This document shows positions 1 through 57,795 of a DNA stretch of 64,000 nt, one piece after another. A program made the translations under genes and the position numbers. Under the pieces are notes generated by a model that worked only from the letters and a program-made list of their open reading frames with translations, searched no databases and was not told where the DNA came from. Source of the DNA: a virus (lineage: Duplodnaviria; Heunggongvirae; Uroviricota; Caudoviricetes); the IMG/VR virus record IMGVR_UViG_2693429637_000011, one strand, 5' to 3'. The first letter of the stretch is position 1, and each line of letters starts with the position of its first letter.

Positions 1-1107
1 ACTAAATCAGTAAGTTGGCAGCATCACCCGACCCGTGATGGTGTTCGTGGAAAAGAAAAACTGGATGTCCCCATCAAGTTTTTATGGTGCTACGCCAGTA
101 ACACATTGATCAATCAACATGGCGACATCAATCACACCCATGAGGTGCTTCAGGATGACAGCAAGTGCGAGATGATTGTTGGCATTGACCACTTCATGAC
201 GGCCTCGGCTAAGTATTGCGATATCCTGTTGCCCGACCTGATGCCAACAGAGCAAGAAGACCTTATCTCTCATGAATCTGCAGGGAATATGGGCTATGTG
301 ATCCTCGCCCAACCCGCAACCTCAGCAAAATTTGAACGCAAACCCATCTACTGGATGCTGAGTGAAGTCGCCAAACGCTTAGGACCAGACGTTTATCAAA
401 CCTTTACTGAAGGTCGCAGTCAGCATGAATGGATCAAATATCTCCATGCGAAAACGAAGGAACGTAACCCTGAGATGCCCGACTACGAGGAGATGAAAAC
501 GACCGGGATCTTTAAGAAAAAATGCCCGGAAGAACACTACGTCGCTTTCCGCGCATTCCGTGAAGATCCACAGGCAAACCCGTTGAAAACACCTTCGGGG
601 AAAATCGAAATTTATTCTGAACGACTGGCGAAGATTGCGGATACCTGGGAATTGAAAAAAGATGAAGTTATTCATCCCCTTCCTGCGTATACCCCAGGTT
701 TTGATGGCTGGGACGATCCCCTGCGGAAAACCTATCCACTGCAGTTAACGGGCTTCCATTACAAAGCGCGTACCCACTCCAGCTACGGCAATATTGATGT
801 GTTACAGCAGGCCTGCCCACAAGAGGTGTGGATCAACCCCATTGATGCTCAGGCACGCGGTATCCGTCATGGCGATACCGTGCGGGTATTTAACAATAAT
901 GGAGAAATGCTGATTGCCGCAAAAGTGACTCCGCGTATTCTGCCTGGCGTTACCGCCATCGGGCAAGGTGCTTGGCTTAAAGCGGATATGTTTGGTGACC
1001 GGGTCGATCACGGCGGCAGTATCAATATTCTGACCTCTCACCGCCCTTCACCGCTGGCAAAGGGAAACCCGTCGCACAGCAATCTTGTCCAGATCGAAAA
1101 GGTTTAA
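1..1107 (+). CDS. ynfF: Molybdopterin oxidoreductase catalytic subunit (DmsA/YnfE/YnfF family), 3' portion; 5' end lies left of the window
   Basis: Reading frame open from base 1; C-terminus ...PSPLAKGNPSHSNLVQIEKV is typical of DMSO-reductase A subunits; a DmsB-like gene starts 10 bp downstream. Confidence 0.8.
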   Translation, partial: TKSVSWQHHPTRDGVRGKEKLDVPIKFLWCYASNTLINQHGDINHTHEVLQDDSKCEMIVGIDHFMTASAKYCDILLPDLMPTEQEDLISHESAGNMGYVILAQPATSAKFERKPIYWMLSEVAKRLGPDVYQTFTEGRSQHEWIKYLHAKTKERNPEMPDYEEMKTTGIFKKKCPEEHYVAFRAFREDPQANPLKTPSGKIEIYSERLAKIADTWELKKDEVIHPLPAYTPGFDGWDDPLRKTYPLQLTGFHYKARTHSSYGNIDVLQQACPQEVWINPIDAQARGIRHGDTVRVFNNNGEMLIAAKVTPRILPGVTAIGQGAWLKADMFGDRVDHGGSINILTSHRPSPLAKGNPSHSNLVQIEKV

Positions 1108-1117
1108 GGAGTAGCCC

Positions 1118-1231
1118 GTGACCACACAATATGGATTTTTTATCGATTCCAGCCGCTGTACTGGCTGTAAAACCTGCGAACTGGCGTGCAAAGATTTTAA
1201 AGTTGGTTACGTATCGTTTAAAATCAATTAG
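1118..1231 (+). pseudogene. ynfG: 5' fragment of 4Fe-4S subunit gene (DmsB/YnfG family), truncated after ~28 native codons by prophage insertion
   Basis: GTG start after RBS ggag; MTTQYGFFIDSSRCTGCKTCELACKDFK matches YnfG/DmsB N-terminus, then diverges at ~1202 and stops at 1229-1231. Confidence 0.75.
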
Positions 1232-1646
1232 ATAGCCCGTCATTTCTGCGCTCACACGTCCCAACATTGAAAAACATGCAAAGCTTTGTAAGCCGATGCA
1301 AAGCTTTGTGTGTCTCACTTTTGTCCCAATACCAATCCGAATCCACCCTTTGTCATCATTGAGAAATGGCAAGGAAGAAAAGGATGTTACTGCACGATTT
1401 GACAAATCCGCCAGAGCTATCGCATACTGATCGCACTGAACAAATAAGCGGTCTCCGCACCCGATAGCTTTGCGGCTTTTTTATGCCTGCAATTTGGCAT
1501 AGTTACATCCGTACAAAGGTCGGGTGGAGAGGCGTAATACAACACCCGCAAGGGGAATATGCCCAGAGCTTCTTATTTGGCTCAGTTGACACCCGACCGC
1601 CAGCTACTAACTGGCGGTTATAAACTAAACAAATAAGGAGGTCATC

Positions 1647-2285
1647 ATGACCAGTCAACTCATCCCCGTATTCAACGGCACTATCGACAACGAAACAGCC
1701 CTACTCTGCAATGCCCGCGATCTGCATGCTTTTTTAGGCGTGAAAAAAGTGTTTGCGGCATGGATTACAAATCGCATTTCAGAATACGAATTCATTGAAA
1801 ATCAAGACTATATTTTGCTTTCCAATTTGGGAAAGCAAACATCTGGTAGAGGCGGTCACAACCGCAAGGACTACCACCTCACCCTCGACACAGCCAAAGA
1901 GCTTGCGATGGTTGAACGTAACGAAAAAGGCCGCCAGATACGCCGCTACTTCATCGAGTGCGAAAAGAAACTTCGCAACATTCAGCCAGTACAAGCAGAA
2001 CCACAGCCGCAATTCACAGCCGAGGAAATCATCCTCCTTTGCTACATGCAGCTCTGGATGGAAAAAGCCCAGGACCTCAGCAAACACCTGTATCCCATTA
2101 TGAAAGAGCTGAACTCCTCATACACGAACAAGCTGTATGACATTGCGTTTGAGACCATCTACATGGTGACGAAGAACAGAGACGCGCTACTGAGGGAGGT
2201 AACACGTCTCGACATGTCAAGTTCCGTTATCCAGCGGGCCATGCCAATGCTGAAAAGCCTGCGGGCAAGACAATTCGAGTTTTAA
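1647..2285 (+). CDS. Antirepressor-like protein (AntA-type N-domain fused to shared C-terminal module)
   Basis: RBS aaggagg 8 bp upstream of ATG; C-terminal 93 aa nearly identical to ORF 48591..49262 and homologous to C-terminus of 2540..3172. Confidence 0.65.
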   Translation: MTSQLIPVFNGTIDNETALLCNARDLHAFLGVKKVFAAWITNRISEYEFIENQDYILLSNLGKQTSGRGGHNRKDYHLTLDTAKELAMVERNEKGRQIRRYFIECEKKLRNIQPVQAEPQPQFTAEEIILLCYMQLWMEKAQDLSKHLYPIMKELNSSYTNKLYDIAFETIYMVTKNRDALLREVTRLDMSSSVIQRAMPMLKSLRARQFEF

Positions 2286-2539
2286 GGCCAGATTTGACAA
2301 ATCCGCATTAACGGGGATATATTCCGCTCCATGGTGCTGAACACACCTTCGAAAGCGGAAACCGCGCCCGTCAGTCATGCGGATTTTTTATGTCCATTTT
2401 TCAGATATGGTCGGGTAGCGCGTATACCGAAAAACAGCCGCAAGGCTAAGGATGCGGGCCGAACTTTCGACGGTGTTCAAGTACCCGACCGCCCTGCTGA
2501 ACACGGGGTGATCTGAACAAATCGAAAGGACATAAAACT

Positions 2540-3172
2540 ATGAGCACTCAACTTGTATTCCACAATGTTCAATTCCAGACCGTTCAACGAGATGGTCTAC
2601 TGTGGTTGTCTGCCCCCCAAATAGCCAGCGCGTTACAATATGCAGATCAAAGCTCGGTAACACGCATCTATGCCCGTCACGCAGATGAATTCACAAACGG
2701 TATGACAGCCTCGGTCAAATTGACCGATCCTAAAGGGGACAAGCAAGAGACTCGCATCTTCTCATTACGCGGCGCTCACCTAATAGCGATGTTTGCTCGA
2801 ACTCCAATAGCAAAAGAGTTTCGTCGCTGGGTATTGGATATTCTGGACCGTGAAGCTGAAAAAAGCGCTATACCGCCACAACCTCATATTCAGCCTCAAT
2901 TCACAGCAGAAGACATCATCCTGCTCTGCTACGTTCAACTCTGGATGGAAAAAGCACAACAACTCAGTAAACAGCTATACCCCGTCATGAGAGAACTGAA
3001 CTCTGATTACTATGGAAAGCTGTTTGATCTGGCCTACGAAACTCGTCATATAACCAACCGGACTCGCGACACATTGCTCCGCGAAGCAGCAAAACTTGAT
3101 CCCGCCAACTATACGGTGCACAGGGCCAGAAGTATGCTGGCGCAACTAAGAGCAAGACAATTTGAATTCTGA
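2540..3172 (+). CDS. Bro-N domain antirepressor-like protein with the same C-terminal module
   Basis: N-terminal Bro-N-like sequence (LVFHNVQFQTVQRDGLLWLSAPQIASAL...); C-terminal ...QPQFTAEDIILLCYVQLWMEKAQ...RARQFEF homologous to the other two ant paralogs. Confidence 0.65.
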   Translation: MSTQLVFHNVQFQTVQRDGLLWLSAPQIASALQYADQSSVTRIYARHADEFTNGMTASVKLTDPKGDKQETRIFSLRGAHLIAMFARTPIAKEFRRWVLDILDREAEKSAIPPQPHIQPQFTAEDIILLCYVQLWMEKAQQLSKQLYPVMRELNSDYYGKLFDLAYETRHITNRTRDTLLREAAKLDPANYTVHRARSMLAQLRARQFEF

Positions 3173-3219
3173 AACCAAAGGAGCTTCGGCTCCTTTTTTC
3201 ATGCCTGAAGGAAAGGAAA

Positions 3220-3441
3220 ATGGCAGATATCATCGACAATGCCGCTGAAATCGAAGAATTGCAGCGCAATCTCTCCCTGCAAAAATACAAATCCGATAGT
3301 AATGCCCCATCTGCTACTCATTGTTGCGAGTGTGGCGATCCGATAGATGAGCGGCGACGCCTGGCTGTTCGTGGATGCCGAGCTTGCGCCAGTTGCCAGC
3401 AGGATATTGAACTTATCAACAAACAGAGAGGTGTGAAGTGA
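3220..3441 (+). CDS. TraR/DksA-family C4 zinc-finger protein
   Basis: 73 aa, CxxC...CxxC (CCECGDPIDERRRLAVRGCRACASC) typical of phage TraR-like proteins. Confidence 0.65.
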   Translation: MADIIDNAAEIEELQRNLSLQKYKSDSNAPSATHCCECGDPIDERRRLAVRGCRACASCQQDIELINKQRGVK

Positions 3442-3677
3442 ACATCAACACCACGATAACGATCGATACAGCCCTGAACACCGGCCTGGCGCTCCTTGGT
3501 TATTTCTACATCATGTTCTGCAGCGGACGATGGCTGTCACTGTTGTTCATGAAAAAATGGAATAAACGCCGTAAGCAGGAGCAACGCCAGAAGGCAATGG
3601 ATGCATTTTTCGAAGCCTTCGGGATTGACAGCATGGAACCAGGGGATCCAGCTCGCGCAATCAGCAGAGGGGCGTAG
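3438..3677 (+). CDS. Small hypothetical membrane protein
   Basis: GTG start overlapping upstream stop; hydrophobic segment LALLGYFYIMF. Confidence 0.35.
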   Translation: MNINTTITIDTALNTGLALLGYFYIMFCSGRWLSLLFMKKWNKRRKQEQRQKAMDAFFEAFGIDSMEPGDPARAISRGA

Positions 3678-6685: not shown

Positions 6686-9600
6686 TTAATCCACTCCCAC
6701 TTTTTTGTTGTACTCGCGGTTAAACCGATCCACGGCAACCTTCATATCCCGCTCTACCGATTTCACCATCGCCGCCTGCTGCGCCAGACTGAGAGAACTG
6801 TCGGCATAAATGGCATCGCGCTGTTTGCGCAAATCCTTCAGTCTCTTCCGGGTATCCTGCATAAGCCCGTTCATCAACAATTTTCCGTTGTTCTCGTCAA
6901 TGAACGCCGTTCTTTCTGCACCGGTCAGACTCTTCAGCTCTGCGTGATACTGCGCAACCTCTGTCATCCGGTCGTACATCTTCTGCTGGTCTGCATACGG
7001 CATCACCTCACCCGAAATTTTCCCCAGGAAGGGCACCTGCTGTTCCGGTATATCAATACCATTCAGCGATTTCACCGCCGCATCCGTGGTTTTGGAAATG
7101 AAGCGCCCTGTCCCTCCGGAGATATAGTCAATCCAGAATTTCAGCGATTCCGGTGTGATATCCACCGCGCCGGGACGATACTGGCTGCCACCTGAGAACG
7201 CATTCAGCCAGAATGCAAACGCCTTGTACGCTTCTGGCGTTGAACGTCTTCCCAGCTGGCTGTCAGGTTTTGGTGTACCAAACGGCATGTTCTCCTGGTA
7301 AATCTGCGCCCCCATGAAGTTTTCGTTCATGGCAAGATTCGCAAACGGACGCAGAATTGTCGGTGCTGCATTTTTCAGCAATGCCCCCGACAACGTTTCC
7401 GACGTCTCGCTGCCGATCGGGCTGAATGCCCCCAGGATACCGCCGACAACATTACCGGCAGCACGTGAAGCAGTCAGGTCGCCCGCTGCCACACCTTCAG
7501 CTGTATGACCAAGCAGGAAGAACACGTTGTACCCGTAAGGCAGAGGAATACTCCAGTACTCACCGGCCTTGCCCCCGAACATCGATTTCATGATGACGAG
7601 GTTACGCTCTTTCACATGAGACGGTACTTTGTCGTACCAGTTAACCCCGTCATCATCCTCACCCGCCACACTGCGGTTAAGCGAGCCAAGCAGATAACCC
7701 GCTCCCACAGCTGCAAGCACGATTTTCTGCGGTACATTGAGATTCTTCCAGCGAAGGCGCTCCAGTAACGGTCCGTCGCCATTAAGATGTCCGAGCGTTC
7801 TCACCAGGTTTGCGGTCCCCTGAATGCTGGCGTTGGCAAACATGTACAGCGAGTTCATCAGCATCCCCTGCTCACCACGACGGTTAAAGTTCACCGTCAT
7901 GTTTTTGGCAAGAGACGCCGCCTGCTGGCGTGACAAACCGGCATCACGGGCGTGTTTATAGGCAGAAAGACGCAGAGCGTTTTCAACCGCGCCGTTGGCA
8001 TCCTCGACCAGGTTCAGGAACGAATGCCATGCACCGATACTCTGGCCTTTCCATCCGCCCTTCGCCAGCGACACAAGGCGATCCATTTCCTTCTGCTGGC
8101 CCTCAAGGTCACCCATGTTAAACCAGCCGGTTTTACCTCCGTCCTCAACAAACTCTTTCCACACTTTCTGCCACTGTGCGCCTTTGCCCGTGAGGGTTTT
8201 ACCCCGCAGACTTGCGTATACGGCTGACATGGCGGAACGGCTGTCTTTCACCACAGCCAGCGCGGATAAGTTATCCAGCTCTTTCAGTTTACCGTCGCTC
8301 CTTCCCTGCTCAGCCTTCAGGTTCATCACCGCAGTCTGCACGTCACGGATGAAGTTACTGACCAGAAATTCCGGGTTATACGACGTGTTCACCGTTGCCA
8401 GGAAGCGGTTAACTTTCCCCAGCGTACGGATTACGGCGTTACTGGTTTCCGGCCCCATGTTCTTCATCGCACGCATCAGGCGCGGATCATGAAGTTTAAT
8501 GTAGTAAGTTTTGCCGTCCTTTTTGGTGGTGAAGTAGCGATCCGCCATCATTGCCATCGGCACAGGGCGCTCGACAACTTCGCGAATGGTTTCACCAGTT
8601 TCCTGGTCCTTGCGCTCTGCAATCACACGCATTGTATCCGGTCTGTCATCAGTGAATACCTGCCAGTAATCCTTGTCGGGATTATCCTGTACCAGTTTCA
8701 GGAAGGCGTTACCCACTTCATTTTTGCGATTGCGGATCAGCGATTCACTCAAATCCTGTATCGCCTGAGTGGAAGGAGACTGTGCGCGGGATGCACGCCC
8801 CATGGCCTGCTTACTTTCACGCCCGCCGATGGTGAATCCCTTGCCTGTACGTGGCTGTGACACCACACCGTCAACATCCTGCCCTTTCAGGGGGACGTAG
8901 TAACGGTAGGCTTTCTGCCAGGCATCCACCACGCCGCTCTCTTCCAGTCCTGCCTCACGGATAATCTCACGGCGACGGGCCAGCATATCGTCAATAATCC
9001 CTGCCAGACGGTCATACTGTGCCTGTTTGCCGCTGTTACGCACACGCTGCATGATTTCCGCCGCTTCCGCGTTGGTCATCCCCGAACCGCCGTCCGGCAT
9101 TTTCGGGTTGATTTTCGCAATATGCACGTTACGTTCCGGCGCGTGACGGGCGTAGAGGTACTCATCCAGATCGGCCTGCGCAATTTTGTAGTCCGCCAGC
9201 AATTTGGCCAGCGGCTGAACGTAGCGCTCCTTCATTACGTTCAGGTCGTTTTCCGCCTTCCCGTGGAAGAGTTCTTCAGCCATATAGGCGTTATTGCTGT
9301 CATCTATTTTTCCGCCAGTTTTACGGATATTCTCCTGCACCGCCTTCAGCACCTGGAATTTATCCTGCATCTGGCGAACAAAACGGGATGCAATTGTCTC
9401 TTCCGGCGTCAGACTGCTGGTGCGGGAGTAATACGGCCCCTTGCGAATATCTTCAGGATAGAGTATTTTATCAACAGAGCCGCGATAAGAATGTTCCCCT
9501 TTGGGCAATTGGAGCCCTCTGTGCAGAAGGTTATCGCGGCTTAATTTTTCTCTCCGGTACAACGTTAAACCGGTCATTTCCATACTCTTCAGTTTTTTCC

Positions 9601-12600
9601 CGTTTTCCGTACCGTAAACAGATGCCACCTTGTTGATTTCCAGGCGCGACCGGACAGCCTTCATGTGTACCGCTGACACCACCGGATCACCATTTTTATC
9701 CACGGCATCAAGCAGCATCACAACCGCGTTTCTTTCTGTCGCGGAACGGTAAATTGCATCCGGATCGTGCATCAGTTCCGGTAGTCTCTCGATAACATCC
9801 ATCGGCACCACATGTTTCACACCATTGGTGGCCTTACGCACAGTGTCGCGGGAGATAACCAGCGGCAAATCTGGTGCGCCAAGGTGACGCAATACCGGCG
9901 GCGTACGCCCGATGTTTACCGTTAAATCCGTTGAGCGCAGAGACTTCATCATTCTGGCAAGGTCATCACGATAACGCTCGCCCTCACCTTCCGGCACTTT
10001 GAACGGATCAGGCTTACCGCTACGGGAGTACTGAGACGATGCGTCCGCGCCATCCTCACGCGGCGTGTAACCTTCCCGCACACGCTGGCCTAACGTGCGA
10101 ATAGTTTCGCGAACAAGTCTGATATCGTTCAGTTCCGTCGGCTTCAGTAACCCCGTACGACGCAGTACCCCTTTGACCAGGGCAACAACACGCTCCCATG
10201 CCGCCACGAATTTAATCGGCTGCTTCTCTGCCATATGCGCCAGAAATTCACCCGCCTGCACTTCCGGTGATTCCTTACCATAAGACGCATCAACCTTACG
10301 CCAGGCTTCACGGATGGTGGCGTTATCACTGTCACGGGTTTTCAGCACGGTCTTAATAATCGTCTGATATTCCGCTGGCGTGACTACATGCTCCATTGCA
10401 TGGTGAATAATCTCGTGACGTAACTTCTCGCGAACGGTCCGCCCGTCAGGGATGTTATCCGCCACCAGGACAATTTCACGTTTATCCGGACGATAGAACG
10501 CGTGCACCTTGCCGTAACCGTCGAATGATTCACCCGCCAGTGCTTCAGCCTCTTTCTGTGACTTCACCACGCGGACCTTCAGGTCACTGTCCTTAATGCC
10601 ACTAATCACGCCACGGGCAACAGCTTCAACCTGCGGGACCGGACTGCCTTTGGCTTCCGCACTGCGGTTAACATCCGAAATCAGATTGCCTTCAGGTGTG
10701 CGGGTCACGCCCTTACGGGAATAAAACGCAACTCCCTTGTCCGTCTCACGGGTTTTCAGTGTTCGGAACAAGTGATCGAATGCCTCACGAATACCGCCAT
10801 CCAGTTCTGCATTCGTCGGATAAGCGTAGGTGTCCGGCTGTCCATGGTCATCCGCCTTACGGATATTGACCAGATAATCATTCTCCACGCCAGCCATACG
10901 CGCTTTATCCTGAACATAACGCTCAAAGGCTCGCGCCGCCATTTCAACATCCGTTGACCAGTACGGTTTTGAACGAACGCCATCCAGGCGTTCAGAACGA
11001 CGCAACATGTCACTGCTGTTAATGGCTTTCATCACGCCTTTAAACGCGTCGTAAACCTCCTGACGTACCGGATATTCCGCATCAACATACCTGCCGTCTT
11101 TAAATACGCGCCCGGCACGCTGTGCTTCCGTCATATAGTCGCCACCTGACGTGATCTTCCCGTCAGTGGAAACATCATAACGACCAAAATAATTATCCAG
11201 TGAATGGAACCATTCGTGGGCCAGCGCCCCCGGTCCGTTACCTTTTGTCAGGTTGATTGCCACCTCACCCGGCTCATAGTGTGCCGCCGCCTTACCCTTA
11301 CCACGGGCACCAAAAGCAAGCCCAAGACGACCGTTCAGAGAAAGCGCTTTTGTCGGCACGTTCAGCACGTCAGCCAGGTCATGCAGCGAGTCATAAGCCC
11401 GGTTCAAATCAGCCTGACGACGCGGACTTTCCACATAATTACCAAACTGCACACCACGAAAACCAAACGCATCACTGAACTGCTCCGGCGAAACATCCCC
11501 CTTGCGGCGTTCTGGTCCGGTACGATCGCGGTTGGTGGCGTTACGCTGCTCCTCACGCGAGACTTCACGCAGCGCCTTCACCTGATTAACCAGCTCATCA
11601 CGATGTGTGCGCACATAATCATGTGCATCACGGGCAGACTCAAAACCGCCCTTCAGTTTCTGCCTGTTTTTGCCATAACCGATAAAAATGTCGCCACTGG
11701 CCTTATGCCGGTACACGTCAAAGGTTATTCTGTCATCAGCAGAGGTTGCTGGCGTTTCCCTTTCTCTGGAGCCTTGTTCATCGAAATATGCTTTCGCCTT
11801 TTTCAGTAACTCATCCCGGCTTTCCGAGAAAAAGAGGTCGCGCCCCTTGCTATCACGAAGCGAATACATCATTTGCGGCGGATCGTAACGTTTTCCCCCG
11901 ACAAACGAATAAACACCGGACCTGACACGATAGCCGGATGCTTTATCAATCTGCAATGCAGAAAGCGTACGGAGCAGTTTCCAGGTATCCGACATGCTCC
12001 GTAACCCCGGCTTACTGTCCATCATATCAGCCAGTTTCGCTGCCGGAATTTTCCCCTCCAGCATACCGGCAGTAGCTTCGCGACCGCTTTTAACAATGCT
12101 GATCCATTTCTGCATGTTACGGCTTGTTCTGGTGGGAATTTCACTGCGATACAACGCCATCATTGCCAGCGTGTCACTATCCACACCTTCTTTTTCCAGA
12201 CGGGCATAATCCGGCTTTGGAAACAGTTTGCTCAGTGGTTGTGTCGCGTACTCCCCATCCTCCAGCGTTTTACCCATAGCTTCAGCAAGCTGCGCATAAC
12301 GGTGTTTTGCCGCGCCCTTAATCTCCTCGCCAAAGTCTTCAATTTTCGCACCACGCGCCTGCTGGTGAGTGCTCGGTTTATCTACCGGCACCGGCACCTC
12401 AGTATCCGGAACATCGGTTATGGTCTGGCGATTATCCCCGGTCTGTCTGCGTGCTTCTGCCTGCTGTGCCAGTTCCGGAAGGGAGTCACGAACCATACGA
12501 GGGAGTGATTCAGGCTGTGGCATATCAACCCCACGCTGACTTTCAGGTGCAGGAAGACCTTCACGCACTGGTGCTGTGGCGTTCTGCTCATCCGGTGACG

Positions 12601-15037
12601 GCAGACCACGACGAACTGTTTCGCCCTCCAGTATTTCCCCCTGGCGACCAGCGGCATTTTCCGGTGCCTGCGCACGTCCTTTCTGGAAACTCTGGCCCTT
12701 CACCTCACCGGTTGTGGTAAAACGACCACCACGTCCGGCCTGATTTTCATCCGGCGTACGCGCTACTTCTCCTGGTAACGGATATCCCTGTCCGGGATGA
12801 ATATCGCCGGGAGCGGGAAGGCGTGGACGCTCAGTTAACTCCTGTGCTGTCGGACCGGCATCACCTTCAGCCATCTGGGAACGCACCAGTTCTTCCGCCG
12901 TCGGCGCGTTGCCACGAGCAAGACGGGCCTGCACTTCTGTATCATCCCCCGTAAAACCACGGAATCGCGGGTCACGCATGAACGCGGGCTGTTCCATCGG
13001 ATCAGCATCAGTAATACGCTCTCCGTCAGCCAGAGTGTTAATGGTCTCCGTTGCCACATCTTCAGAGAACGCAGGATTATCCATTTCAACGGCATACTGA
13101 TTCTCGCCTTTCTTCACTACGGACGGTTTCAGGCCGGTGGCGCTGGCATTGCGGAAAACGTCGCTCCCCAGAGCACTTTTTTCATCCGTGAAATAACGGT
13201 TGTCCGGACGCACCTTTTCAATGCGTTCTGCTGGTCTGGACGCACCACTCTCGTTAATTTCAATACGAACTTCATCCGGATCGCGGAACCGCACCGTCGG
13301 GTAAATACTCCCGTCGCCATCATCCGCATTTTCCGGCTGTGGCTGTGCCTCCGGTCTGGCCTCCCGCTGAGGGCGAAGCACATCACGTATTGCCTGTAAC
13401 TGCTGCTCTTCAGTATCAGTACGCCCTTCCTTCTGGCTGAGTTTTCGGTATTCCTCAAGCAGTTCAGGGCGCGGCTTCGCCTTCAGCTCATCCATCACCG
13501 CCTGTCGCTTCGCCTGTTCATCCAGTTCATTCAACAGCTGGCTGGCGGCTTCCCGGCGATGAACGGCAGACGTGTCTCCCTCATGTGCCATATCCGCATC
13601 AGCATACTGTTCCAGAAGCTGCTCGCGATTCATCCCCTGCATAGATTCACGATGCTGTGCCACCGGATCAACCGGTTCGGGTTGCGGAGCCGATTCGTCC
13701 TGAGGAACGCTTTCAGCCTCACGCATGGCTGCTTCATCTGCCGCCTGACGTTTTCCACGATATCCGGCAGCCGCACCGAATGGTGCCCCCATTGCAGCAC
13801 CAAGGGCTGCACCTTCGATCGTTGCGTCAGCCACGCCCTCCCACGGTGACACATCCATTCCGGCGGTCTCACGCAATGCCGTGTTTTCCTGATAGCGTGA
13901 ATAGCCACCCTGCGCCGCATTAATCGTCCCCTGTTCCGTGGCATTTCTGACAATGCCGCTTTTAACGGTCTTCGCCGTGCCCCGCATCGCCAGATTAAGC
14001 AACTGAGCATCGCCCAGTTTTGCCGCCATGGCATTCACAGCCAGCAATTCAGGATCGGTTGCCAGCTGCGCACGCACCTCATCGGCAACACGCTCTTTTG
14101 CCAGGTCCATTTTCTGGCGGTCAGTAAGCTGCGCGTGCTGCGGATCTGCATCAATTGACAAAAAGGTCTGCTGAAATTTCGGTGACTTCGCCAGCTCAGA
14201 ATAATCCGCGTTAAGAACAGCATCTGCCGCTGCCATTGCACTCCGCCCTTGCGCACTGACAGTGGAATGGGTGATCAGGCCTGCCTGGAAAAAATCCGGC
14301 ATTTTTTTATCGACAGCTTCGGCTGCCAGTGCTGTGGCTCTTTCCGGCTGCATCCCTGCCGCGATGTATTTTTTCTCCAGCCCGGCGGTCAGCACTTTTC
14401 GCAGAGTGACATCACCCAGCTTTTTAGTCACACCGCCTGCAACCATATCCGGTACAAGCGCACCAATCAGGTTAACCCCTTTCGCTACCCAGACCGCTGA
14501 ATCATCATATCCTTCAGTCATCGGTGTATTCAGCGCCCGCTGCGCCCCCGGCGACATCTTGCCAGTCAGCCATTCATCCGAGGCTTTAGCGCCGCCACTG
14601 ACGGCCTTGCCTGTGACCTTCAGACCTTTACCGACAGTATCAGTAACCGCATTTTTTCCATCAGGCAGAGTGTCGATGACCTCATCCGCCCCCTTGCTGC
14701 CACCGACAAAAATATCCTGAACAGTTGCGACTCCCGGCAGCCCCATACGGCTGAACTCATTTAAAATACGTACCCCTGTTTTTACCGGGCTCTGAATCAT
14801 CGCATCACCGAGTCCACGGGCCATTTCCCCTGTCCCCCGGACGGACTGGGCGACACCTTTCCCCATAGTTGGCAATACATCGCCCAGGCTGAACGACGTG
14901 CTGTTGTCCTTCCAGCGATTGGGATCGGAGAAAAACACATCATAGCTGTCAGTCTCTCCCGGCTGCTGAATGTTCAGGCTGTTGCGGCTCTGGTTGCCAA
15001 ATTGCGCTTCAGGGCGCTGTTCATCGGAATAAGCCAT
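6686..15037 (-). CDS. Giant (2783 aa) multidomain virion-associated protein, candidate polyvalent/ejection protein with two zincin-like HExxH motifs
   Basis: Single uninterrupted 8.35-kb ORF at the distal end of the morphogenesis operon; HEWFH (~11201-11216) followed by ...EMAARAFE; second HEIIH (~10395-10420). Confidence 0.8.
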   Translation of the reverse strand: MAYSDEQRPEAQFGNQSRNSLNIQQPGETDSYDVFFSDPNRWKDNSTSFSLGDVLPTMGKGVAQSVRGTGEMARGLGDAMIQSPVKTGVRILNEFSRMGLPGVATVQDIFVGGSKGADEVIDTLPDGKNAVTDTVGKGLKVTGKAVSGGAKASDEWLTGKMSPGAQRALNTPMTEGYDDSAVWVAKGVNLIGALVPDMVAGGVTKKLGDVTLRKVLTAGLEKKYIAAGMQPERATALAAEAVDKKMPDFFQAGLITHSTVSAQGRSAMAAADAVLNADYSELAKSPKFQQTFLSIDADPQHAQLTDRQKMDLAKERVADEVRAQLATDPELLAVNAMAAKLGDAQLLNLAMRGTAKTVKSGIVRNATEQGTINAAQGGYSRYQENTALRETAGMDVSPWEGVADATIEGAALGAAMGAPFGAAAGYRGKRQAADEAAMREAESVPQDESAPQPEPVDPVAQHRESMQGMNREQLLEQYADADMAHEGDTSAVHRREAASQLLNELDEQAKRQAVMDELKAKPRPELLEEYRKLSQKEGRTDTEEQQLQAIRDVLRPQREARPEAQPQPENADDGDGSIYPTVRFRDPDEVRIEINESGASRPAERIEKVRPDNRYFTDEKSALGSDVFRNASATGLKPSVVKKGENQYAVEMDNPAFSEDVATETINTLADGERITDADPMEQPAFMRDPRFRGFTGDDTEVQARLARGNAPTAEELVRSQMAEGDAGPTAQELTERPRLPAPGDIHPGQGYPLPGEVARTPDENQAGRGGRFTTTGEVKGQSFQKGRAQAPENAAGRQGEILEGETVRRGLPSPDEQNATAPVREGLPAPESQRGVDMPQPESLPRMVRDSLPELAQQAEARRQTGDNRQTITDVPDTEVPVPVDKPSTHQQARGAKIEDFGEEIKGAAKHRYAQLAEAMGKTLEDGEYATQPLSKLFPKPDYARLEKEGVDSDTLAMMALYRSEIPTRTSRNMQKWISIVKSGREATAGMLEGKIPAAKLADMMDSKPGLRSMSDTWKLLRTLSALQIDKASGYRVRSGVYSFVGGKRYDPPQMMYSLRDSKGRDLFFSESRDELLKKAKAYFDEQGSRERETPATSADDRITFDVYRHKASGDIFIGYGKNRQKLKGGFESARDAHDYVRTHRDELVNQVKALREVSREEQRNATNRDRTGPERRKGDVSPEQFSDAFGFRGVQFGNYVESPRRQADLNRAYDSLHDLADVLNVPTKALSLNGRLGLAFGARGKGKAAAHYEPGEVAINLTKGNGPGALAHEWFHSLDNYFGRYDVSTDGKITSGGDYMTEAQRAGRVFKDGRYVDAEYPVRQEVYDAFKGVMKAINSSDMLRRSERLDGVRSKPYWSTDVEMAARAFERYVQDKARMAGVENDYLVNIRKADDHGQPDTYAYPTNAELDGGIREAFDHLFRTLKTRETDKGVAFYSRKGVTRTPEGNLISDVNRSAEAKGSPVPQVEAVARGVISGIKDSDLKVRVVKSQKEAEALAGESFDGYGKVHAFYRPDKREIVLVADNIPDGRTVREKLRHEIIHHAMEHVVTPAEYQTIIKTVLKTRDSDNATIREAWRKVDASYGKESPEVQAGEFLAHMAEKQPIKFVAAWERVVALVKGVLRRTGLLKPTELNDIRLVRETIRTLGQRVREGYTPREDGADASSQYSRSGKPDPFKVPEGEGERYRDDLARMMKSLRSTDLTVNIGRTPPVLRHLGAPDLPLVISRDTVRKATNGVKHVVPMDVIERLPELMHDPDAIYRSATERNAVVMLLDAVDKNGDPVVSAVHMKAVRSRLEINKVASVYGTENGKKLKSMEMTGLTLYRREKLSRDNLLHRGLQLPKGEHSYRGSVDKILYPEDIRKGPYYSRTSSLTPEETIASRFVRQMQDKFQVLKAVQENIRKTGGKIDDSNNAYMAEELFHGKAENDLNVMKERYVQPLAKLLADYKIAQADLDEYLYARHAPERNVHIAKINPKMPDGGSGMTNAEAAEIMQRVRNSGKQAQYDRLAGIIDDMLARRREIIREAGLEESGVVDAWQKAYRYYVPLKGQDVDGVVSQPRTGKGFTIGGRESKQAMGRASRAQSPSTQAIQDLSESLIRNRKNEVGNAFLKLVQDNPDKDYWQVFTDDRPDTMRVIAERKDQETGETIREVVERPVPMAMMADRYFTTKKDGKTYYIKLHDPRLMRAMKNMGPETSNAVIRTLGKVNRFLATVNTSYNPEFLVSNFIRDVQTAVMNLKAEQGRSDGKLKELDNLSALAVVKDSRSAMSAVYASLRGKTLTGKGAQWQKVWKEFVEDGGKTGWFNMGDLEGQQKEMDRLVSLAKGGWKGQSIGAWHSFLNLVEDANGAVENALRLSAYKHARDAGLSRQQAASLAKNMTVNFNRRGEQGMLMNSLYMFANASIQGTANLVRTLGHLNGDGPLLERLRWKNLNVPQKIVLAAVGAGYLLGSLNRSVAGEDDDGVNWYDKVPSHVKERNLVIMKSMFGGKAGEYWSIPLPYGYNVFFLLGHTAEGVAAGDLTASRAAGNVVGGILGAFSPIGSETSETLSGALLKNAAPTILRPFANLAMNENFMGAQIYQENMPFGTPKPDSQLGRRSTPEAYKAFAFWLNAFSGGSQYRPGAVDITPESLKFWIDYISGGTGRFISKTTDAAVKSLNGIDIPEQQVPFLGKISGEVMPYADQQKMYDRMTEVAQYHAELKSLTGAERTAFIDENNGKLLMNGLMQDTRKRLKDLRKQRDAIYADSSLSLAQQAAMVKSVERDMKVAVDRFNREYNKKVGVD

Positions 15038-39224: not shown

Positions 39225-41135
39225 TTATGCGGCTGCTCCAGCTTTGTTTGCTTTAACTTCCACCGTATCAATAAGTACAGGGTAGGTTTCTGCACTACCT
39301 GTAATATCCGTAATGACAAACCTGTTGAGTCCATTAGCAGTATTGGCCCATTTCACCAGGTCAAACGCCTGTCCATCCACACCATCGAGCACCGGAGTAA
39401 CATTAATGCTGTTACTGCCCTTAAATTTAAATGCAAGCGTATGCCAGTCATGGTCGAATGCGCCAAACGTGCCAAGTTCTTTTTGTTGATTAACTGTATG
39501 ATGGTATGCAACATTAATACTGGCTTTATCTGTCTGGACAAAGAAAGAACTCAGATGGCCTTCACCACCCTCACCCGGCCATTCCGCTATTCGCCAGTAC
39601 AAACCAAAGGCATACTTGTTTCTGGTTGTCTCAAGATTGACGTTTTCGGGGATTTTAAACCGGACAGCAATTTCTCCGCCTTTTTCCAGTAAAAGTTTTG
39701 CCTTGTCTGCAGCAATATCACAGTACATTGACCAGGATTTCGCGCTGTTATTTTTCTCAATTCGCAGAGCTTTATTGCCGCTGTCATCAACCAGTGTGCG
39801 CCTGCCATACACACCGTCCCAGCCATAGGGTTTCAGCTGATTGTCTGTAGCTTTTTTGGCATCGTAAAAAATTACAGACTCTGAGGTGGTAACCGGTCTG
39901 TCTGGAACAACCACCCCGGCAGTACCATTAACAAACGCAGAAGACTTACCCGCGCAGCTCAGAATCGCAGTTGCCAGACGGTCGGAAATAATCCCACGGC
40001 GAGCCCATGAACTGAAATGGCTCGCCCTGTCCTGTGACGTCCAGGTGGCTGAGCTGTCACGCCATTTCGAACCGTAATAACCGATACCCGGAATGTCCGG
40101 GTCTTCTTCCGGTTTGTTCGTCGGCACATTCACCCCGTTCTCATCGGTCATGAACGGTACGAAATGGATATTCTTTTCCGTTTTATTTTTATAGCTGCCG
40201 TACACCGTCTGGTACGTGGATTCGTTCTTCTGCTTCCAGAAATACGTCGTGTCCCCGCATATCCAGGGAACACCGCCAGCAGAGCCACCGACGCACTGGC
40301 CTGCCATATCCGCCAGGTCTGCACGGAATTTATCAACCAGCGCACCAAACTGTGCGGCATGATTTGCCGGCGTACCGCCAAAATCAAATTCCCCCTGCAT
40401 CCACACCACGGCAAACAGCACATTTTTCGGGTTCTTCTCCAGTGCCGCTTTTGTTCGACCGATAAGGTCCTTATACAGCGGCTTGTCCACACCCCAGCGG
40501 GTTGAATTCTCCGAGGCGCCACTCGCGTCACTGTATGTGCCATCAGCTCCGGTGGTGAACGCTGAACCACCACGACAGCACGGAACCAGCAGAATGCCCG
40601 CATTCGCCGGTATAAACGGCAGCAGTTTTTTGGCGATATGCAGCCCCTGCCCCACGGTTCCGTACTGCCCCTTTGACAGGTCCGCTTTCGGATGGTTAAG
40701 ACGGCTCATGTCCTGCACATCATGCAGACAATGGTCCGCCGGAATGATGTCGTTATATTTGCATGCTGCACCGCCCGGTGTCACCGTACTGCGACGCGCT
40801 AACTGTTTAATACGTGGATCAGGGCTGTCGAATGTATCCGGTAATGGCAGTCCCTCACCGTATGACATACCATTGGACTGACCAGCAAGCGCGATCACAT
40901 AGTAATATTCTGGCGCAACAGAAGGCGCTGAGGTCGTCGGACGGTTGCCTGGCTCCTCTGGTGATGAGATGCTCCCCTCACTCACAACTGGCTGGATGAA
41001 CTCCGCACCATAACCAGCTGTCGAAATCAGCGCACTACCATAAGGCTGCCACCCTTCCTTCAGTTTTTGAGTTATTCGTTTCGCAAGGTCTGACGGCGAC
41101 GCCGCCCTGACAACATCATAGTGTTTAAATGCCAT
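39225..41135 (-). CDS. nanS-p: Sialate O-acetylesterase, prophage NanS-p-like (copy 1)
   Basis: 636 aa; GQSN catalytic motif of the SASA/SGNH esterase family; conserved N-terminal MAFKHYDVVRAASPSDLAK...KEGWQP domain. Confidence 0.7.
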   Translation of the reverse strand: MAFKHYDVVRAASPSDLAKRITQKLKEGWQPYGSALISTAGYGAEFIQPVVSEGSISSPEEPGNRPTTSAPSVAPEYYYVIALAGQSNGMSYGEGLPLPDTFDSPDPRIKQLARRSTVTPGGAACKYNDIIPADHCLHDVQDMSRLNHPKADLSKGQYGTVGQGLHIAKKLLPFIPANAGILLVPCCRGGSAFTTGADGTYSDASGASENSTRWGVDKPLYKDLIGRTKAALEKNPKNVLFAVVWMQGEFDFGGTPANHAAQFGALVDKFRADLADMAGQCVGGSAGGVPWICGDTTYFWKQKNESTYQTVYGSYKNKTEKNIHFVPFMTDENGVNVPTNKPEEDPDIPGIGYYGSKWRDSSATWTSQDRASHFSSWARRGIISDRLATAILSCAGKSSAFVNGTAGVVVPDRPVTTSESVIFYDAKKATDNQLKPYGWDGVYGRRTLVDDSGNKALRIEKNNSAKSWSMYCDIAADKAKLLLEKGGEIAVRFKIPENVNLETTRNKYAFGLYWRIAEWPGEGGEGHLSSFFVQTDKASINVAYHHTVNQQKELGTFGAFDHDWHTLAFKFKGSNSINVTPVLDGVDGQAFDLVKWANTANGLNRFVITDITGSAETYPVLIDTVEVKANKAGAAA

Positions 41136-41557
41136 GAATCCTCCCGGCCGGGATAATATTGTGAGTAAAATAAGGAGCGGGCTGAAGTCCGGAAGTTACA
41201 GGACAATGGCAGAAGGGAGACTACAGCCCGCAATTCGAAAAAGGTCGCGCAGTTGCGCAGAGTGATTACTATGGGGTATTATTCGCCAGCTGAAATATTA
41301 CTTCACGTTTCATTGTTCATTCCTTGCCGCCCGCGTCTCCCAGCGCGGGCTTTTTTGTCCATAAGAAAGCCCCTCCGGAGAGGGGCTGGAGAGTGGCGCT
41401 ATGTGCCATTGCATGGTGCCGGGTGCCTCCCGGTGAGTTCAGCCCGGTGCCACTAAACCCGCGTCATTCTCGTTTTGATAATCAGAGATTATACCGTCAC
41501 CAGTCGCCCCTCCGCTCAGGGGGATTCACCATGCAGTTTTTTCTAACAAATTCTCAT
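41050..41557. repeat. Repeat A copy 1 (nanS-p 5' end plus ~400-bp upstream element)
   Basis: Near-identical to 45250..45742 and, in part, 46000..46300; contains hairpin cccgcg-N8-cgcggg plus T-run and a perfect TATAAT on the minus strand. Confidence 0.6.
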
Positions 41558-42596
41558 CAGCGCGGGTTTGATTACCGTATCCCTTCATTGGTCGGTTATT
41601 CATGTCCGTCAGCAACTCCCGAAGGCGTGCATTCAGCGCCCTGAGCGTGTGGAAGGTTTCATTACGGATGCGGGCAAGAAGCCATCGCTCGACGATGAGG
41701 ACGCCGTTTTCTGCTTTTGGTTTATCTTTAGGTTTGCGCGGGCGGGCCGGGATAATAACCGTGCCATAGTGCTCAGCCAGCGCCTGATAACTGTCGTTGA
41801 TGACAGGCTCATAGCGATCGGCTTTTTTCACTGCGCTTCTGAGGTTATCGGGGATGAGCAGCTTCGGTACGCCGCCCAGGAAGGTCAGGCAACGGCTGTG
41901 GGCATTTAACCATGACATCATGTCCTGACCTTCGCACGCTTCAACATAGGTATAGTTGGACGCCCCCATTACAGCCACGAAGATTGCCACGCGGCGTATC
42001 TCTCCGGTGTCCGGATTAATAACAGGGACCGTAGGACCACAGAAGTCGATAAAGAGCTTTTCGCCAGCACGATGCTCCTGTCGCATGGAGAGGCGTCGCG
42101 TTTTTTTCCACTTCCGGTAGCAACGGCAGAAGTGTGAGTATCCCATCGCTTTGTCACCCGCCTGTGCCTTGTATTCCATCCACAACAGTTGGCGCGTCAC
42201 GCCAGGTTTTCTCATTTCCGTATCGAAGTACAGCATGTCAGGCATAACAAGCTCTGACGCAGAGGTGTCTTTGGGCGGGAAAATGAGTTTCTCCAGCGTG
42301 TCATGGGATATATCCGCAGGTAATGGCCATGACAGAGAAGAGGCTTTGAAGCGGGCAAGAACCTCAAAAACGGTTGAGGCGCTGATGTGTAACGTCAGTC
42401 CGATACAACGGTTAGTCAGCTTCTTATCGAACTTGAGCTGAAGGATCTTAAAACAAGTTTCCATAGTGCTCCTGGATTTTCTCTTTTTGGACATTGACGT
42501 CTCCACTGGTTTAAACACGGCAATGGAGACTGTGGTGAAAAGAGTTAATTCCCGGAGTGACTGGCGAATTCCAATCAATGATCGGAAGTATGCCAA
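41526..42596 (-). CDS. IstA-like DDE transposase, probably truncated
   Basis: HTH N-terminus and FIDFCGPTV...VAIFVAV...YTYVE core; last codons read into repeat A. Confidence 0.5.
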   Translation of the reverse strand: MAYFRSLIGIRQSLRELTLFTTVSIAVFKPVETSMSKKRKSRSTMETCFKILQLKFDKKLTNRCIGLTLHISASTVFEVLARFKASSLSWPLPADISHDTLEKLIFPPKDTSASELVMPDMLYFDTEMRKPGVTRQLLWMEYKAQAGDKAMGYSHFCRCYRKWKKTRRLSMRQEHRAGEKLFIDFCGPTVPVINPDTGEIRRVAIFVAVMGASNYTYVEACEGQDMMSWLNAHSRCLTFLGGVPKLLIPDNLRSAVKKADRYEPVINDSYQALAEHYGTVIIPARPRKPKDKPKAENGVLIVERWLLARIRNETFHTLRALNARLRELLTDMNNRPMKGYGNQTRADENLLEKTAW

Positions 42597-42720
42597 ATCG
42601 TGATCGATTGTGATGCCAAACTGTGATCGGAGATGGATGCCAAATCATGATCGATTCGAATGCCAAACTGCGATCGATTCAGATGCCATTTTGCAATCAG
42701 CGCCAGAACAGCAGCTGACA
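41526..42720 (-). mobile_element. IS21-family-like element remnant (IstA-like transposase, no IstB)
   Basis: DDE transposase-like ORF; left end carries multiple atgccaaa(c/t)(c/t)gtgatcg terminal repeats (42540-42700); 3' end abuts repeat A. Confidence 0.5.
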
Positions 42721-42800
42721 GGCCGTATTTGATTTTTGCGCTCATGGATATTTATCAGGATGCTACCAATGAAAGATACTGGAAAGCCAACTGCAAAAAG

Positions 42801-43115
42801 CTAACAACCCGTAATCGAGTTATCAGAACTGTTAATTTTTATGGTATACCGCGCCTCTGAACAGGGGCGCGTTTCTGGCAACAGCTCGTCCCCTTCACAT
42901 AACCCGGCAGCAACATCCAGGAAGACCTGTCTGATGCTCCTTCTGGCTGCTGCCTCATAAAACTCCAGCGCGGCACCTTCAACACGGTCCAGCGAGATGT
43001 CCAGGTCAAAAATTTCACCGTCAAAGCGTTTTTTGTCCCGTAACGCTAAAGTTACCGTAACTTTATTCTCAAAATTGCGGATCCCTTTCACAATCAGTTC
43101 ATAGTTTTGAGTCAT
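42801..43115 (-). CDS. DUF1327-family protein (YdfO/YbcV-like)
   Basis: MTQNYELIVKGIRNFENKVTVTLALRDKKRFDGEIFDLD... resembles E. coli cryptic-prophage DUF1327 proteins. Confidence 0.55.
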   Translation of the reverse strand: MTQNYELIVKGIRNFENKVTVTLALRDKKRFDGEIFDLDISLDRVEGAALEFYEAAARRSIRQVFLDVAAGLCEGDELLPETRPCSEARYTIKINSSDNSITGC

Positions 43116-43119
43116 TGAA

Positions 43120-43335
43120 TTACTCTCCCCGTGCAGCCTTACGACGGTCCTCTCTGATTTTGAAATACAGGTTAGTCAGATATGTCAGCAGCCCAAACAG
43201 CAGACTCCCCAGCACGCCTATTGCCGCCCACTGAGACGGGGAAACCCTGTCCAGCAACTGCAGGAACCAGTAGCCCGTTCCCACCGCTGACGTGGTGTAT
43301 GACACACCTGTTGTGATTTTTTCCATCTGGTACAT
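43120..43335 (-). CDS. Pinholin, second (orphan) copy
   Basis: 71 aa, 1 aa different from holin at 38341..38556; no adjacent endolysin or spanin. Confidence 0.75.
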
Positions 43336-43485
43336 ACCCCGTCTCCCGTTATCCGGAAGCTGACAACAATAAAAAAAGCCACCAGTTAAGTACTGATGGC
43401 TCTGATAACTCATGCAGGCATCTCAGACGACCCACTGACACTACCGGTGAGTTTAACGATACCTTCCATTTGGCTGGCTCACTTT

Positions 43486-45339: not shown

Positions 45340-45742
45340 GAATCCTCCCGGCCGGGATAATATTGTGAGTAAAATAAGGAGCGGGCTGAAGTCCGGAAGT
45401 TACAGGACAATGGCAGAAGAGAGACGACAGCCCGCAATTCGAAAAAGACCGCGCAGTTGCGCAGAGTGATTACTATGGGGTATTATTCGCCAGCTGAAAT
45501 ATTACTTCACGTTTTATTGTTTATTCCTTGCCGCCCGCGTCTCCCAGCGCGGGCTTTTTTTGCCCACAAGAAAACCCCTCCGGAGAGGGGCTAAAGCCGC
45601 GTATCTGTATCATCATGCACATGGTGCCGGGTGCCTCCCGGTGAGTTCAGCCCGGTGCCACTAAACCCGCGTCATTCTCGTTTTGATAATCAGAGATTAT
45701 ACCGTCACCAGTCGCCCCTCCGCTCAGGGGGATTCACCATGC
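45250..45742. repeat. Repeat A copy 2
   Basis: Near-identical to 41050..41534, with small indels. Confidence 0.6.
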
Positions 45743-45837
45743 GAAATTTTTTTAACAAATGCCCAGTCTGACAGGCAACTGTCAACTTACTGAATTGTGA
45801 GCAACATAGCATTTAACGGGGAACCTGTTTTCTGCAG

Positions 45838-45866
45838 TAAAAAGGCCCACCGGAGCGGATGGGCCT
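45838..45866 (-). terminator. Intrinsic terminator upstream of repeat A copy 2
   Basis: ggccca-N10-tgggcc hairpin plus T-run on minus strand. Confidence 0.45.
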
Positions 45867-45873
45867 GGAAGGA

Positions 45874-45999
45874 TGAGGTAGCCTGAGTTTAACGGACACT
45901 CCTTCCTGAAATAGAATGGCATCAGAAGGAGCTAATAATGAGCAGAAAAACCCAACGTTACTCTAAAGAGTTCAAAGCCGAAGCTGTCAGAACGGTTCA
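45874..45999 (+). mobile_element. IS3-family insertion sequence left-end fragment
   Basis: Begins TGAGG...; RBS plus orfA start MSRKTQRYSKEFKAEAVRTV then abrupt junction into repeat A copy 3. Confidence 0.55.
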
Positions 46000-46300
46000 G
46001 CAGAGTGATTACTATGGGGTATTATTCGCCAGCTGAAATATTACTTCACGTTTCATTGTTCATTCCTTGCCGCCCGCGTCTCCCAGCGCGGGCTTTTTTG
46101 TCCATAAGAAAGCCCCTCCGGAGAGGGGCTGGAGAGTGGCGCTATGTGCCATTGCATGGTGCCGGGTGCCTCCCGGTGAGTTCAGCCCGGTGCCACTAAA
46201 CCCGCGTCATTCTCGTTTTGATAATCAGAGATTATACCGTCACCAGTCGCCCCTCCGCTCAGGGGGATTCACCATGCAGTTTTTTCTAACAAATTCTCAT
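46000..46300. repeat. Repeat A copy 3 (partial, lacks nanS-p)
   Basis: Matches the upstream portion of copies 1 and 2. Confidence 0.6.
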
Positions 46301-46362
46301 CCGGGCAGACAACATTCAACTGACTTAATTGTGAGGTATGTAACATTCCCGTTGAACGGATA

Positions 46363-46393
46363 CAAAAAAAGCCAGCCACCAGGGGAGGCTGGC
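46363..46393 (-). terminator. Intrinsic terminator in late leader
   Basis: gccagcc-N10-ggctggc hairpin plus T7 on minus strand. Confidence 0.5.
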
Positions 46394-46572
46394 AAACTCG
46401 TAGAGCAAAATGCTGTTACGCAAACTTCGTTACAGGGTTATCCTGCAATACTTAAAATATACAATATTTAGAAAACTAATAGTGCCATATGAGATTTTTA
46501 AGATTTTGTTATTAATTGCGGTCGTACCTTCCTTTCTGTGTACTTTCCGTATAGCTCACAGGATTCTGGGTA

Positions 46573-46597
46573 CAAAAAAACCCGCGCATCGGCGGGT
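46573..46597 (-). terminator. Candidate tR' terminator ~45 nt downstream of Q
   Basis: cccgc-N5-gcggg hairpin plus T7 on minus strand. Confidence 0.5.
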
Positions 46598-46643
46598 TCG
46601 GCTGCGTGGCAATGTAACCACTCTTATCATGATATGCAGATTT

Positions 46644-47078: not shown

Positions 47079-47268
47079 CAGTATCTTTACCCCATCCGCG
47101 ATGAACCATAAGGACGCCATTGACGACGGCGTGCTTTTTCGCATCTTTATCATCAATGTATTTTCTGACTGTAGCACGATTGCAGTTCAGTATTCTGGCG
47201 ACTTCTGTCTGATTTCCCCTGGTGCAGATCAGTAATTCAGGTATCGTTTGAATTTTAGCATTCATCAA
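47071..47268 (-). CDS. ninH: NinH-like protein
   Basis: [25 protein letters not shown]...VLMVHRGW resembles lambda NinH. Confidence 0.6.
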
Positions 47269-57780: not shown

Positions 57781-57795
57781 ACGGAACAGATTGGC

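Follow-up and report, generated by a model that had tools for sequence, protein, structure and literature searches.

The gene ynfG is a documented attachment (att) site of Shiga toxin (Stx) phages. In Shigella flexneri, the Stx1a phage phiPOC-J13 occupies the ynfG homolog S1742, and it lysogenizes Escherichia coli MG1655 by insertion into ynfG (Gray et al. 2014, PMC4193171). The same site is also used by the Stx phage of S. sonnei 75/02 (PMC5447701) and by the Stx1a prophage of E. coli RM10410 (PMC10562709). Here we analyzed a junction of this kind near the left end of the IMG/VR record IMGVR_UViG_2693429637_000011, a stretch of 64,000 nucleotides that we call the window. Our comparison indicates, with a probability of roughly 0.85, that positions 1196-1333 are the int-distal junction of a ~65-kb lambdoid prophage of the 933W/Stx-phage kind, inserted in ynfG and moved by a P22-type recombination module. 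Such a junction is ordinary and holds little novelty in itself. A first-pass annotation made from the sequence had read a prophage junction and a truncated ynfG here, and both readings stand, whereas its description of two nearby direct repeats as integrase arm-type sites does not, and it had not recognized ynfG as a published integration site.

The insertion gene and the junction are the same in the Shigella phages POCJ13 (KJ603229) and 75/02 Stx (KF766125) and in the RM10410 prophage, and RM10410 itself is among the genomes matched in our sequence search. These ynfG-integrating Stx1 phages have integrases (Int) 99.7 to 100% identical, and int-distal arms 98 to 99% identical, to those of the phage studied here. 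The published primer S1742_up (Gray et al. 2014) corresponds to window positions 878-902, and the pair Stx_phage_dn/S1742_dn placed on NCCP15648 gives 1224 bp, exactly the published product; the phage-side primer Stx_phage_up, however, published for ynfG Stx phages, has no site in the window. In further contrast to these phages, the window lacks an stx operon and lacks tRNA genes between Q and nanS-p, and it carries two antirepressor genes and an insertion sequence (IS). The prophage is an stx-negative relative of Stx phages, and the window represents a ynfG lysogen of such a relative of phiPOC-J13 and 75/02 Stx.

For the recombination module, the reference system is P22. In published accounts, P22 attP spans 260 bp and contains IHF sites that are not essential, P22 Xis is reported to bend its own site strongly, and recombination directionality factors as a rule bend DNA and recognize direct repeats spaced by one helical turn. 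The P22 core matches the tRNA-Thr gene thrW over ~46 bp, and the tRNA gene survives integration intact.

The junction in ynfG and its counterpart in related genomes

The features discussed below are as follows (window positions, strand, description).

1-1107, + strand: 3′ end of ynfF, host DNA (99.7% identity to K-12; annotated as ynfF in all matching genomes)
1118-1202, + strand: 5′ fragment of ynfG, 28 codons with the first CxxCxxCxxxC motif (blastn against K-12; PGAP annotation in lysogens)
1196-1202, no strand: common core or overlap TTTAAAG (comparison of attB, attL, and attR; blastn match ends at 1202)
1203-1210, no strand: putative core-type Int site C′, TTGGTTAC, as read from the letters
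1222-1234, + strand: putative IHF-like site AATCAATTAGATA, one mismatch to WATCAANNNNTTR, at the position of a conserved block in P22-type arms
1238-1333, + strand: stretch homologous to the int-distal arm of P22-type attP (88% identity to BIS08P22 and ST-35)
1258-1263, + strand: candidate arm-type Int site a, GTCCCA, part of the conserved GCTCACACGTCCCA (kept in 9 of the 11 attPs aligned)
1270-1309, + strand: four phased 10-bp units, AAAAACATGC / AAAGCTTTGT / AAGCCGATGC / AAAGCTTTGT (signature nAAnnnnTGn, from 44 arrays)
1274-1313, + strand: hairpin formed by two palindromic repeats (17 pairs, −22.7 kcal/mol as RNA, z −4.4)
1312-1317, + strand: candidate arm-type Int site b, GTCTCA, 11 bp from site c
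1323-1328, + strand: candidate arm-type Int site c, GTCCCA; the b-c spacing is that of the pair in the int 3′ end

The first-pass annotation had placed the break at about 1202 and proposed alignment to an uninterrupted ynfFG locus. When K-12 ynfF-ynfG-ynfH was compared with the window by blastn, a single alignment of 99.7% identity covering window positions 29-1202 was returned, ending exactly at that base, and the remainder of ynfG was absent from the 64-kb window. Beyond 1202 the interrupted frame runs through nine further codons of foreign DNA to a stop at 1229-1231, and PGAP labels the fragment in lysogens as "incomplete, missing C-terminus." The upstream gene ynfF encodes the catalytic subunit of a selenate/tellurate reductase. 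The start codon of the ynfG fragment (1118-1120) is GTG in the window, whereas K-12 and another lysogen with an identical junction have ATG; it is a point change in an already dead gene fragment.

The ttttaaa tract that had been pointed out at the divergence point contains the core. The sequences of attB (gcaaagatTTTAAAGatcttgg), attL as found in the window (gcaaagatTTTAAAGttggttac), and attR (gcaacaacTTTAAAGatcttgg) all include TTTAAAG, and strand exchange must fall within this heptamer at 1196-1202. It occupies ynfG codons 26 to 28, has an imperfect inverted repeat on both flanks, and is of the same size as the lambda-type overlap region. On the phage side, TTGGTTAC is the imperfect inverted partner (5 of 8 positions) of GCAACAAC, which lies on the opposite side of the core in attR and attP. 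This core differs from that of P22 in being 7 bp long and in lying in a protein gene that is destroyed: no tRNA-gene core of the P22 kind is present at this site, no tRNA occurs in the window, and ynfG is not reconstituted at integration. A search of the phage collection with the reconstructed attP for its circular junction returned only records linearized at att.

We surveyed 5426 complete E. coli genomes with a 196-nt query laid across the junction. Among the 5317 genomes with a match, 82 matched the whole query. In the other 5235 the match ends at query position 53 (window position 1202) and ynfG is intact at that point, which leaves the site empty in ~98% of complete E. coli genomes. Ordinary strain variation, which the first-pass annotation had offered as the competing explanation of the break, or an assembly artifact can be practically dismissed, given that identity stops at a single base and ~62.8 kb of phage genes follow, that the missing part of ynfG reappears beyond int in related complete genomes, and that the same junction occurs in 82 independent complete assemblies. 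What is seen at 1202 is almost certainly the att junction of a ynfG-specific phage with a P22-type Int.

The second junction and the positions of int and xis were taken from related complete genomes, beyond window position 64000. The closest of these, FORC_069 and NCCP15648, match the window at 99.9 to 100% and carry a prophage 2 to 4 kb shorter. NCCP15648 (NZ_CP009050.1) is 99.9% identical to window positions 56000-64000; in our extract of it (L096), the last base of the window falls at position 1000, int at 1869-3032, and the core at 3085-3091. The core is thus 2085 bp, and the second junction ~2.1 kb, past the right edge, where the first-pass annotation had expected the other att junction and the integrase. 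In S1-CAM-02-A (NZ_CP145707.1), a prophage of ~66 kb extends from this ynfG fragment as far as a site-specific integrase; the 3′ part of ynfG lies 52 bp beyond, followed by ynfH and dmsD. Comparison of the two ends, as had been suggested, finds TTTAAAG common to attL and to the attR of the relatives.

The prophage splits the ynfEFGH-dmsD operon and inactivates ynfG. At attR the 3′ part of ynfG has a single in-frame start, a GTG that precedes the core by 12 nt and lacks a Shine-Dalgarno sequence, and a product started there has 183 aa and lacks YnfG residues 1 to 26, including the first CxxCxxCxxxC motif. In agreement with this, a Pfam Fer4 match at residues 12 to 25 is found in full-length YnfG only and not in the 183-aa product. 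In the DmsB family every Cys group ligates [4Fe-4S] clusters. Since the attR product lacks this motif, a functional replacement for the lost N-terminal four-Cys motif is, as far as sequence can tell, not supplied, and the earlier statement that ynfG is truncated without a phage-supplied replacement is upheld. Annotation of this product varies: in NZ_CP009050.1 (L096 positions 3073-3624) PGAP calls a 183-aa protein, WP_000069315.1, from the GTG in the phage arm, and in NZ_CP145707.1 it calls the equivalent DNA a pseudogene.

A P22-type module and its candidate arm-type sites

The predicted recombination proteins point to a module of the P22 type. Int has 387 aa (Pfam Phage_integrase, 1.5e-45) and is 100% identical to that of PhiR5_2, 99.7% to that of 75/02 Stx, and 71% to P22 Int, with the N-terminal 65 residues near-identical to those of P22. 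Xis is an intact 123-aa open reading frame (ORF) upstream of int that overlaps it as in P22, matches Pfam HTH_17, and aligns with P22 Xis; in both NZ_CP009050.1 and NZ_CP145707.1 this ORF is flagged "incomplete," although it is intact. The likeness extends to the int-distal arm, which in both phages has GTCCCA, a ATGCAAAG-type array, and GTCCCA-N5-GTCCCA in the same order and at the same spacing, and to the int 3′ end, which contains two GTCCCA sites in both. The probable attP span here is ~240 to 260 bp, which agrees with the 260 bp published for P22.

The phage side of the junction is the counterpart of the P arm of P22 attP, with, outward from the core, the IHF-like site, site a, the 40-bp array of four units, and sites b and c. 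The P22 counterpart of the arm block reads ATGCAAAGCCTTGC-aaaccg-ATGCAAAGATTTGT and lies at an equal distance from the thrW core. The block is also found beside tRNA-Arg-type and tRNA-Thr-type cores as well as the ynfG core, and its outer neighbors are unrelated: gtr in P22, ompT in 2G7b, an ant gene here, and umuD or tail fibers elsewhere. Because it is kept beside differing cores and unrelated cargo genes, we assign the arm block to the int/att module.

To compare both arms, we rebuilt attP from the left side of attR and the right side of attL and aligned it to ten other attPs of the same Int family. The hexamer GTCCCA occurs twice on the int-proximal arm, the copies being 11 bp apart within the last int codons at −106 and −95 from the core center. 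In P22 and ES18, the int-proximal hexamer recurs in three exact copies each within the distal 300 bp, a count reached in none of 2000 shuffles; the phage studied here has two copies in that interval (p ~0.001 by shuffling). In HK75 both proximal copies have turned into GGCACA, a hexamer with two occurrences in that phage's own distal arm (p ~0.004). EhrS_59 shows a similar trend with GACAC, and APSE-2 carries GTCACTA.

The presence of GTCCCA on both arms, together with the concerted change in HK75, suggests that it is probably the arm-type Int site of this family. The arm-type core of lambda is GTCAC, which GTCCCA resembles. The layout here, with three distal and two proximal sites, is also like that of the P22 map, which has three P-arm and two P′-arm sites. 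A map with GTCCCA at fixed spacing around a phased four-unit array could guide att-site annotation across this integrase family. About 185 to 240 bp beyond its core, outside its own GGCACAA-type sites, HK75 also has a relic P22-type block with TGCAAAG-like units and GTCTCA.

The repeats as a phased array

The direct repeat reported by the first-pass annotation at 1276-1310, about 75 bp into the phage, was found as described: the 14-mer ATGCAAAGCTTTGT occurs in exact copies at 1276-1289 and 1296-1309, 20 bp apart and 74 to 107 bp from the core. With two mismatches or fewer allowed, no further copy exists in the 64 kb, the same 14-mer pair sits at an equal position in P22 attP, and the two copies are not a product of chance. 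Tandem Repeats Finder reported no repeat at 1276-1309, because fewer than two full 20-bp copies are present. Each 14-mer contains the 10-bp palindrome CAAAGCTTTG, a detail absent from the first-pass annotation, and the two 14-mers span units 1-2 and units 3-4 of the array of four 10-bp units.

This array was followed across viral contigs. An Int-based search returned mostly prophage predictions that end at the int stop or in a host tRNA, and a pattern scan for GCTCACACGTCCCA was used instead; it gave at least 120 loci, which reduced to 60 distinct distal arms and 44 distinct segments from site a to site b. The gap between these two sites is a constant 48 nt in all 44. Within the units, A2 is kept in 92%, A3 in 84%, T8 in 92%, and G9 in 69%, and the other positions drift, giving 17 sequence types; the array drifts while the GTCCCA sites remain fixed. 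In some relatives the array shows plain ATGCAAA three times at 10-bp intervals. TGCAAAG, with up to one mismatch allowed, is absent from the int-proximal arms of the ten relatives.

The array thus repeats in direct orientation once per helical turn, is confined to the int-distal arm, and abuts site b. Because sites of a directionality factor are characterized by helical-turn repeats with phased A-tracts on one arm beside an arm-type site, we lean slightly toward reading 1270-1309 as a putative Xis-loading and bending element. The Xis sites X1-X1.5-X2 of lambda, with a Fis site by P2, are likewise helical-turn direct repeats on the int-distal arm only, and they too abut an arm-type Int site in DNA that needs a bend for excision. 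Lambda differs in that its Xis, a winged-helix protein, shares no sequence relationship with the HTH_17 Xis here and in that its sites lie between P2 and the core, whereas the four units here, with their putative function, lie between arm sites. A Fis site was rejected, with no G-N13-C match with an AT-rich center seen by eye.

The phage entered ynfG by tyrosine-integrase recombination across the 7-bp TTTAAAG. In the mechanism that we propose for excision, Xis may polymerize on the array with one monomer per helical turn, and Xis and the phased A-tracts together may bend the arm such that Int on the flanking GTCCCA sites could reach the core, in analogy to lambda Xis at X1-X1.5-X2 beside P2.

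Other functions have been or could be proposed for the same DNA. That the 14-bp repeats are themselves arm-type sites for the integrase, as the first-pass annotation suggested, would suit their distance from the core, which is typical for such sites, and the 8-mer ATGCAAAG does occur exactly on the other arm of this phage, in the last int codons 62 bp from the core (chance ~0.005 for a 150-bp arm). However, none of the 10 relatives carries the 14-mer motif on the int-proximal arm, each copy is palindromic while known arm-type sites are not, and the near-identical Int N-domains of P22 and ES18 go with different arrays but the same GTCCCA, which has the advantage of lying on both arms with matching 11-bp spacing and of tracking the Int N-domain as the repeats do not. 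We consider the arm-type reading very unlikely and replace the label: the repeats form an array between likely arm-type GTCCCA sites and are probably not arm sites themselves. A regulatory reading, in which the array is a bottom-strand C1/CII-type site (TTGC-N6-TTGC) or an operator of the antirepressor gene, is more improbable still. The reverse complement of the array, TTGC-N6-TTAC-N6-TTGC (with TTGC three times in P22), follows the CII/C1 half-site pattern, and the palindromes stand two helical turns apart as in operators; yet neither strand of the window or of P22 has a −10 element at the right distance, and a promoter scan found none there. A CII/C1-type promoter was rejected on this count, despite the TTGC repeats on the bottom strand, and an ant-gene operator was rejected since the element stays with int and attP across phages with different neighbors (gtr in P22, ompT in 2G7b, ant here).

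More weight, though still on the unlikely side, goes to the view that the repeats act as a hairpin, either an intrinsic terminator on the − strand, which would keep late-operon or outside transcription from passing through attP into int, or a tI/sib-like element of the int transcript on the + strand. A stem of 17 pairs and −22.7 kcal/mol (z −4.4) forms on the latter strand, with UUUU starting 5 nt after the stem; on the − strand G-UUUUU follows the stem immediately, but the fold there is weak (z −2.0). The depositors of phage L label the homologous stretch "terminator" on the strand opposite int. In SfV and 2G7b pairing is kept through two double changes (C-G to T-A and T-A to C-G) while the direct-repeat identity falls to 9 of 14; no other array type shows such compensatory changes. 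The place of the hairpin beyond att relative to int, separated from int at integration, mirrors lambda sib/tI; lambda sib, by contrast, lies outside the minimal attP, whereas this hairpin is within functional attP between arm sites. Moreover, a fold better than that of shuffles (z < −2.4) is reached by only about 8 of the 17 array types and not by 9, several have no hairpin at all, and the 10-nt phasing is kept in all 17, foldable or not. In the P22/Stx-phage subset, a terminator or sib-like role may come on top of the architectural one. A full combination, in which the array of this subset serves as DNA in the Xis-loaded bend of the excisive intasome and as RNA in a hairpin with both sib/tI and barrier roles, seems improbable to us. 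If it were true, the hairpin would act on the int transcript of the free phage as lambda sib/tI does, and in the lysogen it would stop ynfEF read-through, induced under anaerobic conditions, at the edge of the prophage, before it could activate the antirepressor genes that lie 340 bp farther downstream.

Several points weigh against our reading of a P22-type junction with an Xis-loading array. The pairing of Int with GTCCCA and of Xis with the array draws on sequence comparison and on the P22 map. The int-proximal GTCCCA copies sit in int codons (VPNxSH), and coding partly explains their conservation, and one ATGCAAAG copy does lie on the int-proximal arm of this phage. The second junction is seen in relatives and not in the window's own source genome. 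The first 58 residues of ES18 Xis equal those of P22 Xis, yet the arrays of the two phages differ and share only A2, A3, and T8; with the two Xis proteins alike and the arrays unlike, a base-specific reading of TGCAAAG is disfavored, and Xis recognition must be loose or shape based, or ES18 must be functionally different. Among the only 11 loci that have both elements, diverged Xis goes with diverged arrays in L103 and L196, and identical helix-turn-helix regions of Xis in P22 and ES18 go with different arrays. Finally, the viral contigs L168 and L196 pair an HK75-type Int with a GTCCCA-type arm. In both, the Int with its GGCAC/GACAC sites is joined to the GTCCCA-type distal arm across a shared tRNA core, and these contigs are probably junctions between tandem prophages. 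A separate observation concerns L144 and L148, where a degenerate Xis-like frame with an internal stop (ESHSLTLDDACVFLQV...) adjoins ES18-type distal arms, 225 bp from the arm motif and away from the real xis position.

Content of the prophage

From 1203 to the right edge, all parts examined are phage DNA. The two antirepressor genes (1647-2285 and 2540-3172; AntA/Bro-N with P22AR_C) lie next to the arm; farther on, the window has genes annotated in relatives as N4-gp56-type capsid and short-tail genes, as well as lysis genes, Q, cI/cro, recE-gam-bet, and the start of exo. The region at 39225-47177 on the − strand carries two SASA/NanS-p esterase paralogs by Pfam (43486-45339 and 39225-41135), together with a DUF1327 gene and an rve-transposase ORF (41526-42596). 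Between Q (46644-47177) and nanS-p there is no ORF of the size and strand right for an stx operon, and no tRNA gene was found downstream of Q. The stretch between Q and the first esterase gene, the usual place of the late promoter/terminator region and stx, holds a duplicated block of ~360 bp (45456-45813 and 45995-46347; period ~535 to 539 bp) with 96 to 100% identity in its main parts.

A 2783-aa virion-type ORF with an HEWFH metalloprotease-like motif lies at 6686-15037 on the − strand; in a related lysogen it is annotated as an "LPD5 domain-containing protein" and is truncated by an IS3 element. Each antirepressor gene is preceded on the + strand by a match to the Rfam family sRNA-Xcc1 (RF02221; gathering score, 53), at 1518-1606 with 69 bits and at 2409-2498 with 67 bits. 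Each match lies between a TTGACA promoter-like site (1399-1428 and 2294-2323, respectively) and the gene, and both intergenic regions start with a shared gatttgacaaatccgc; the matches look like a 5′ leader that is conserved among phage ant/Bro-N genes.

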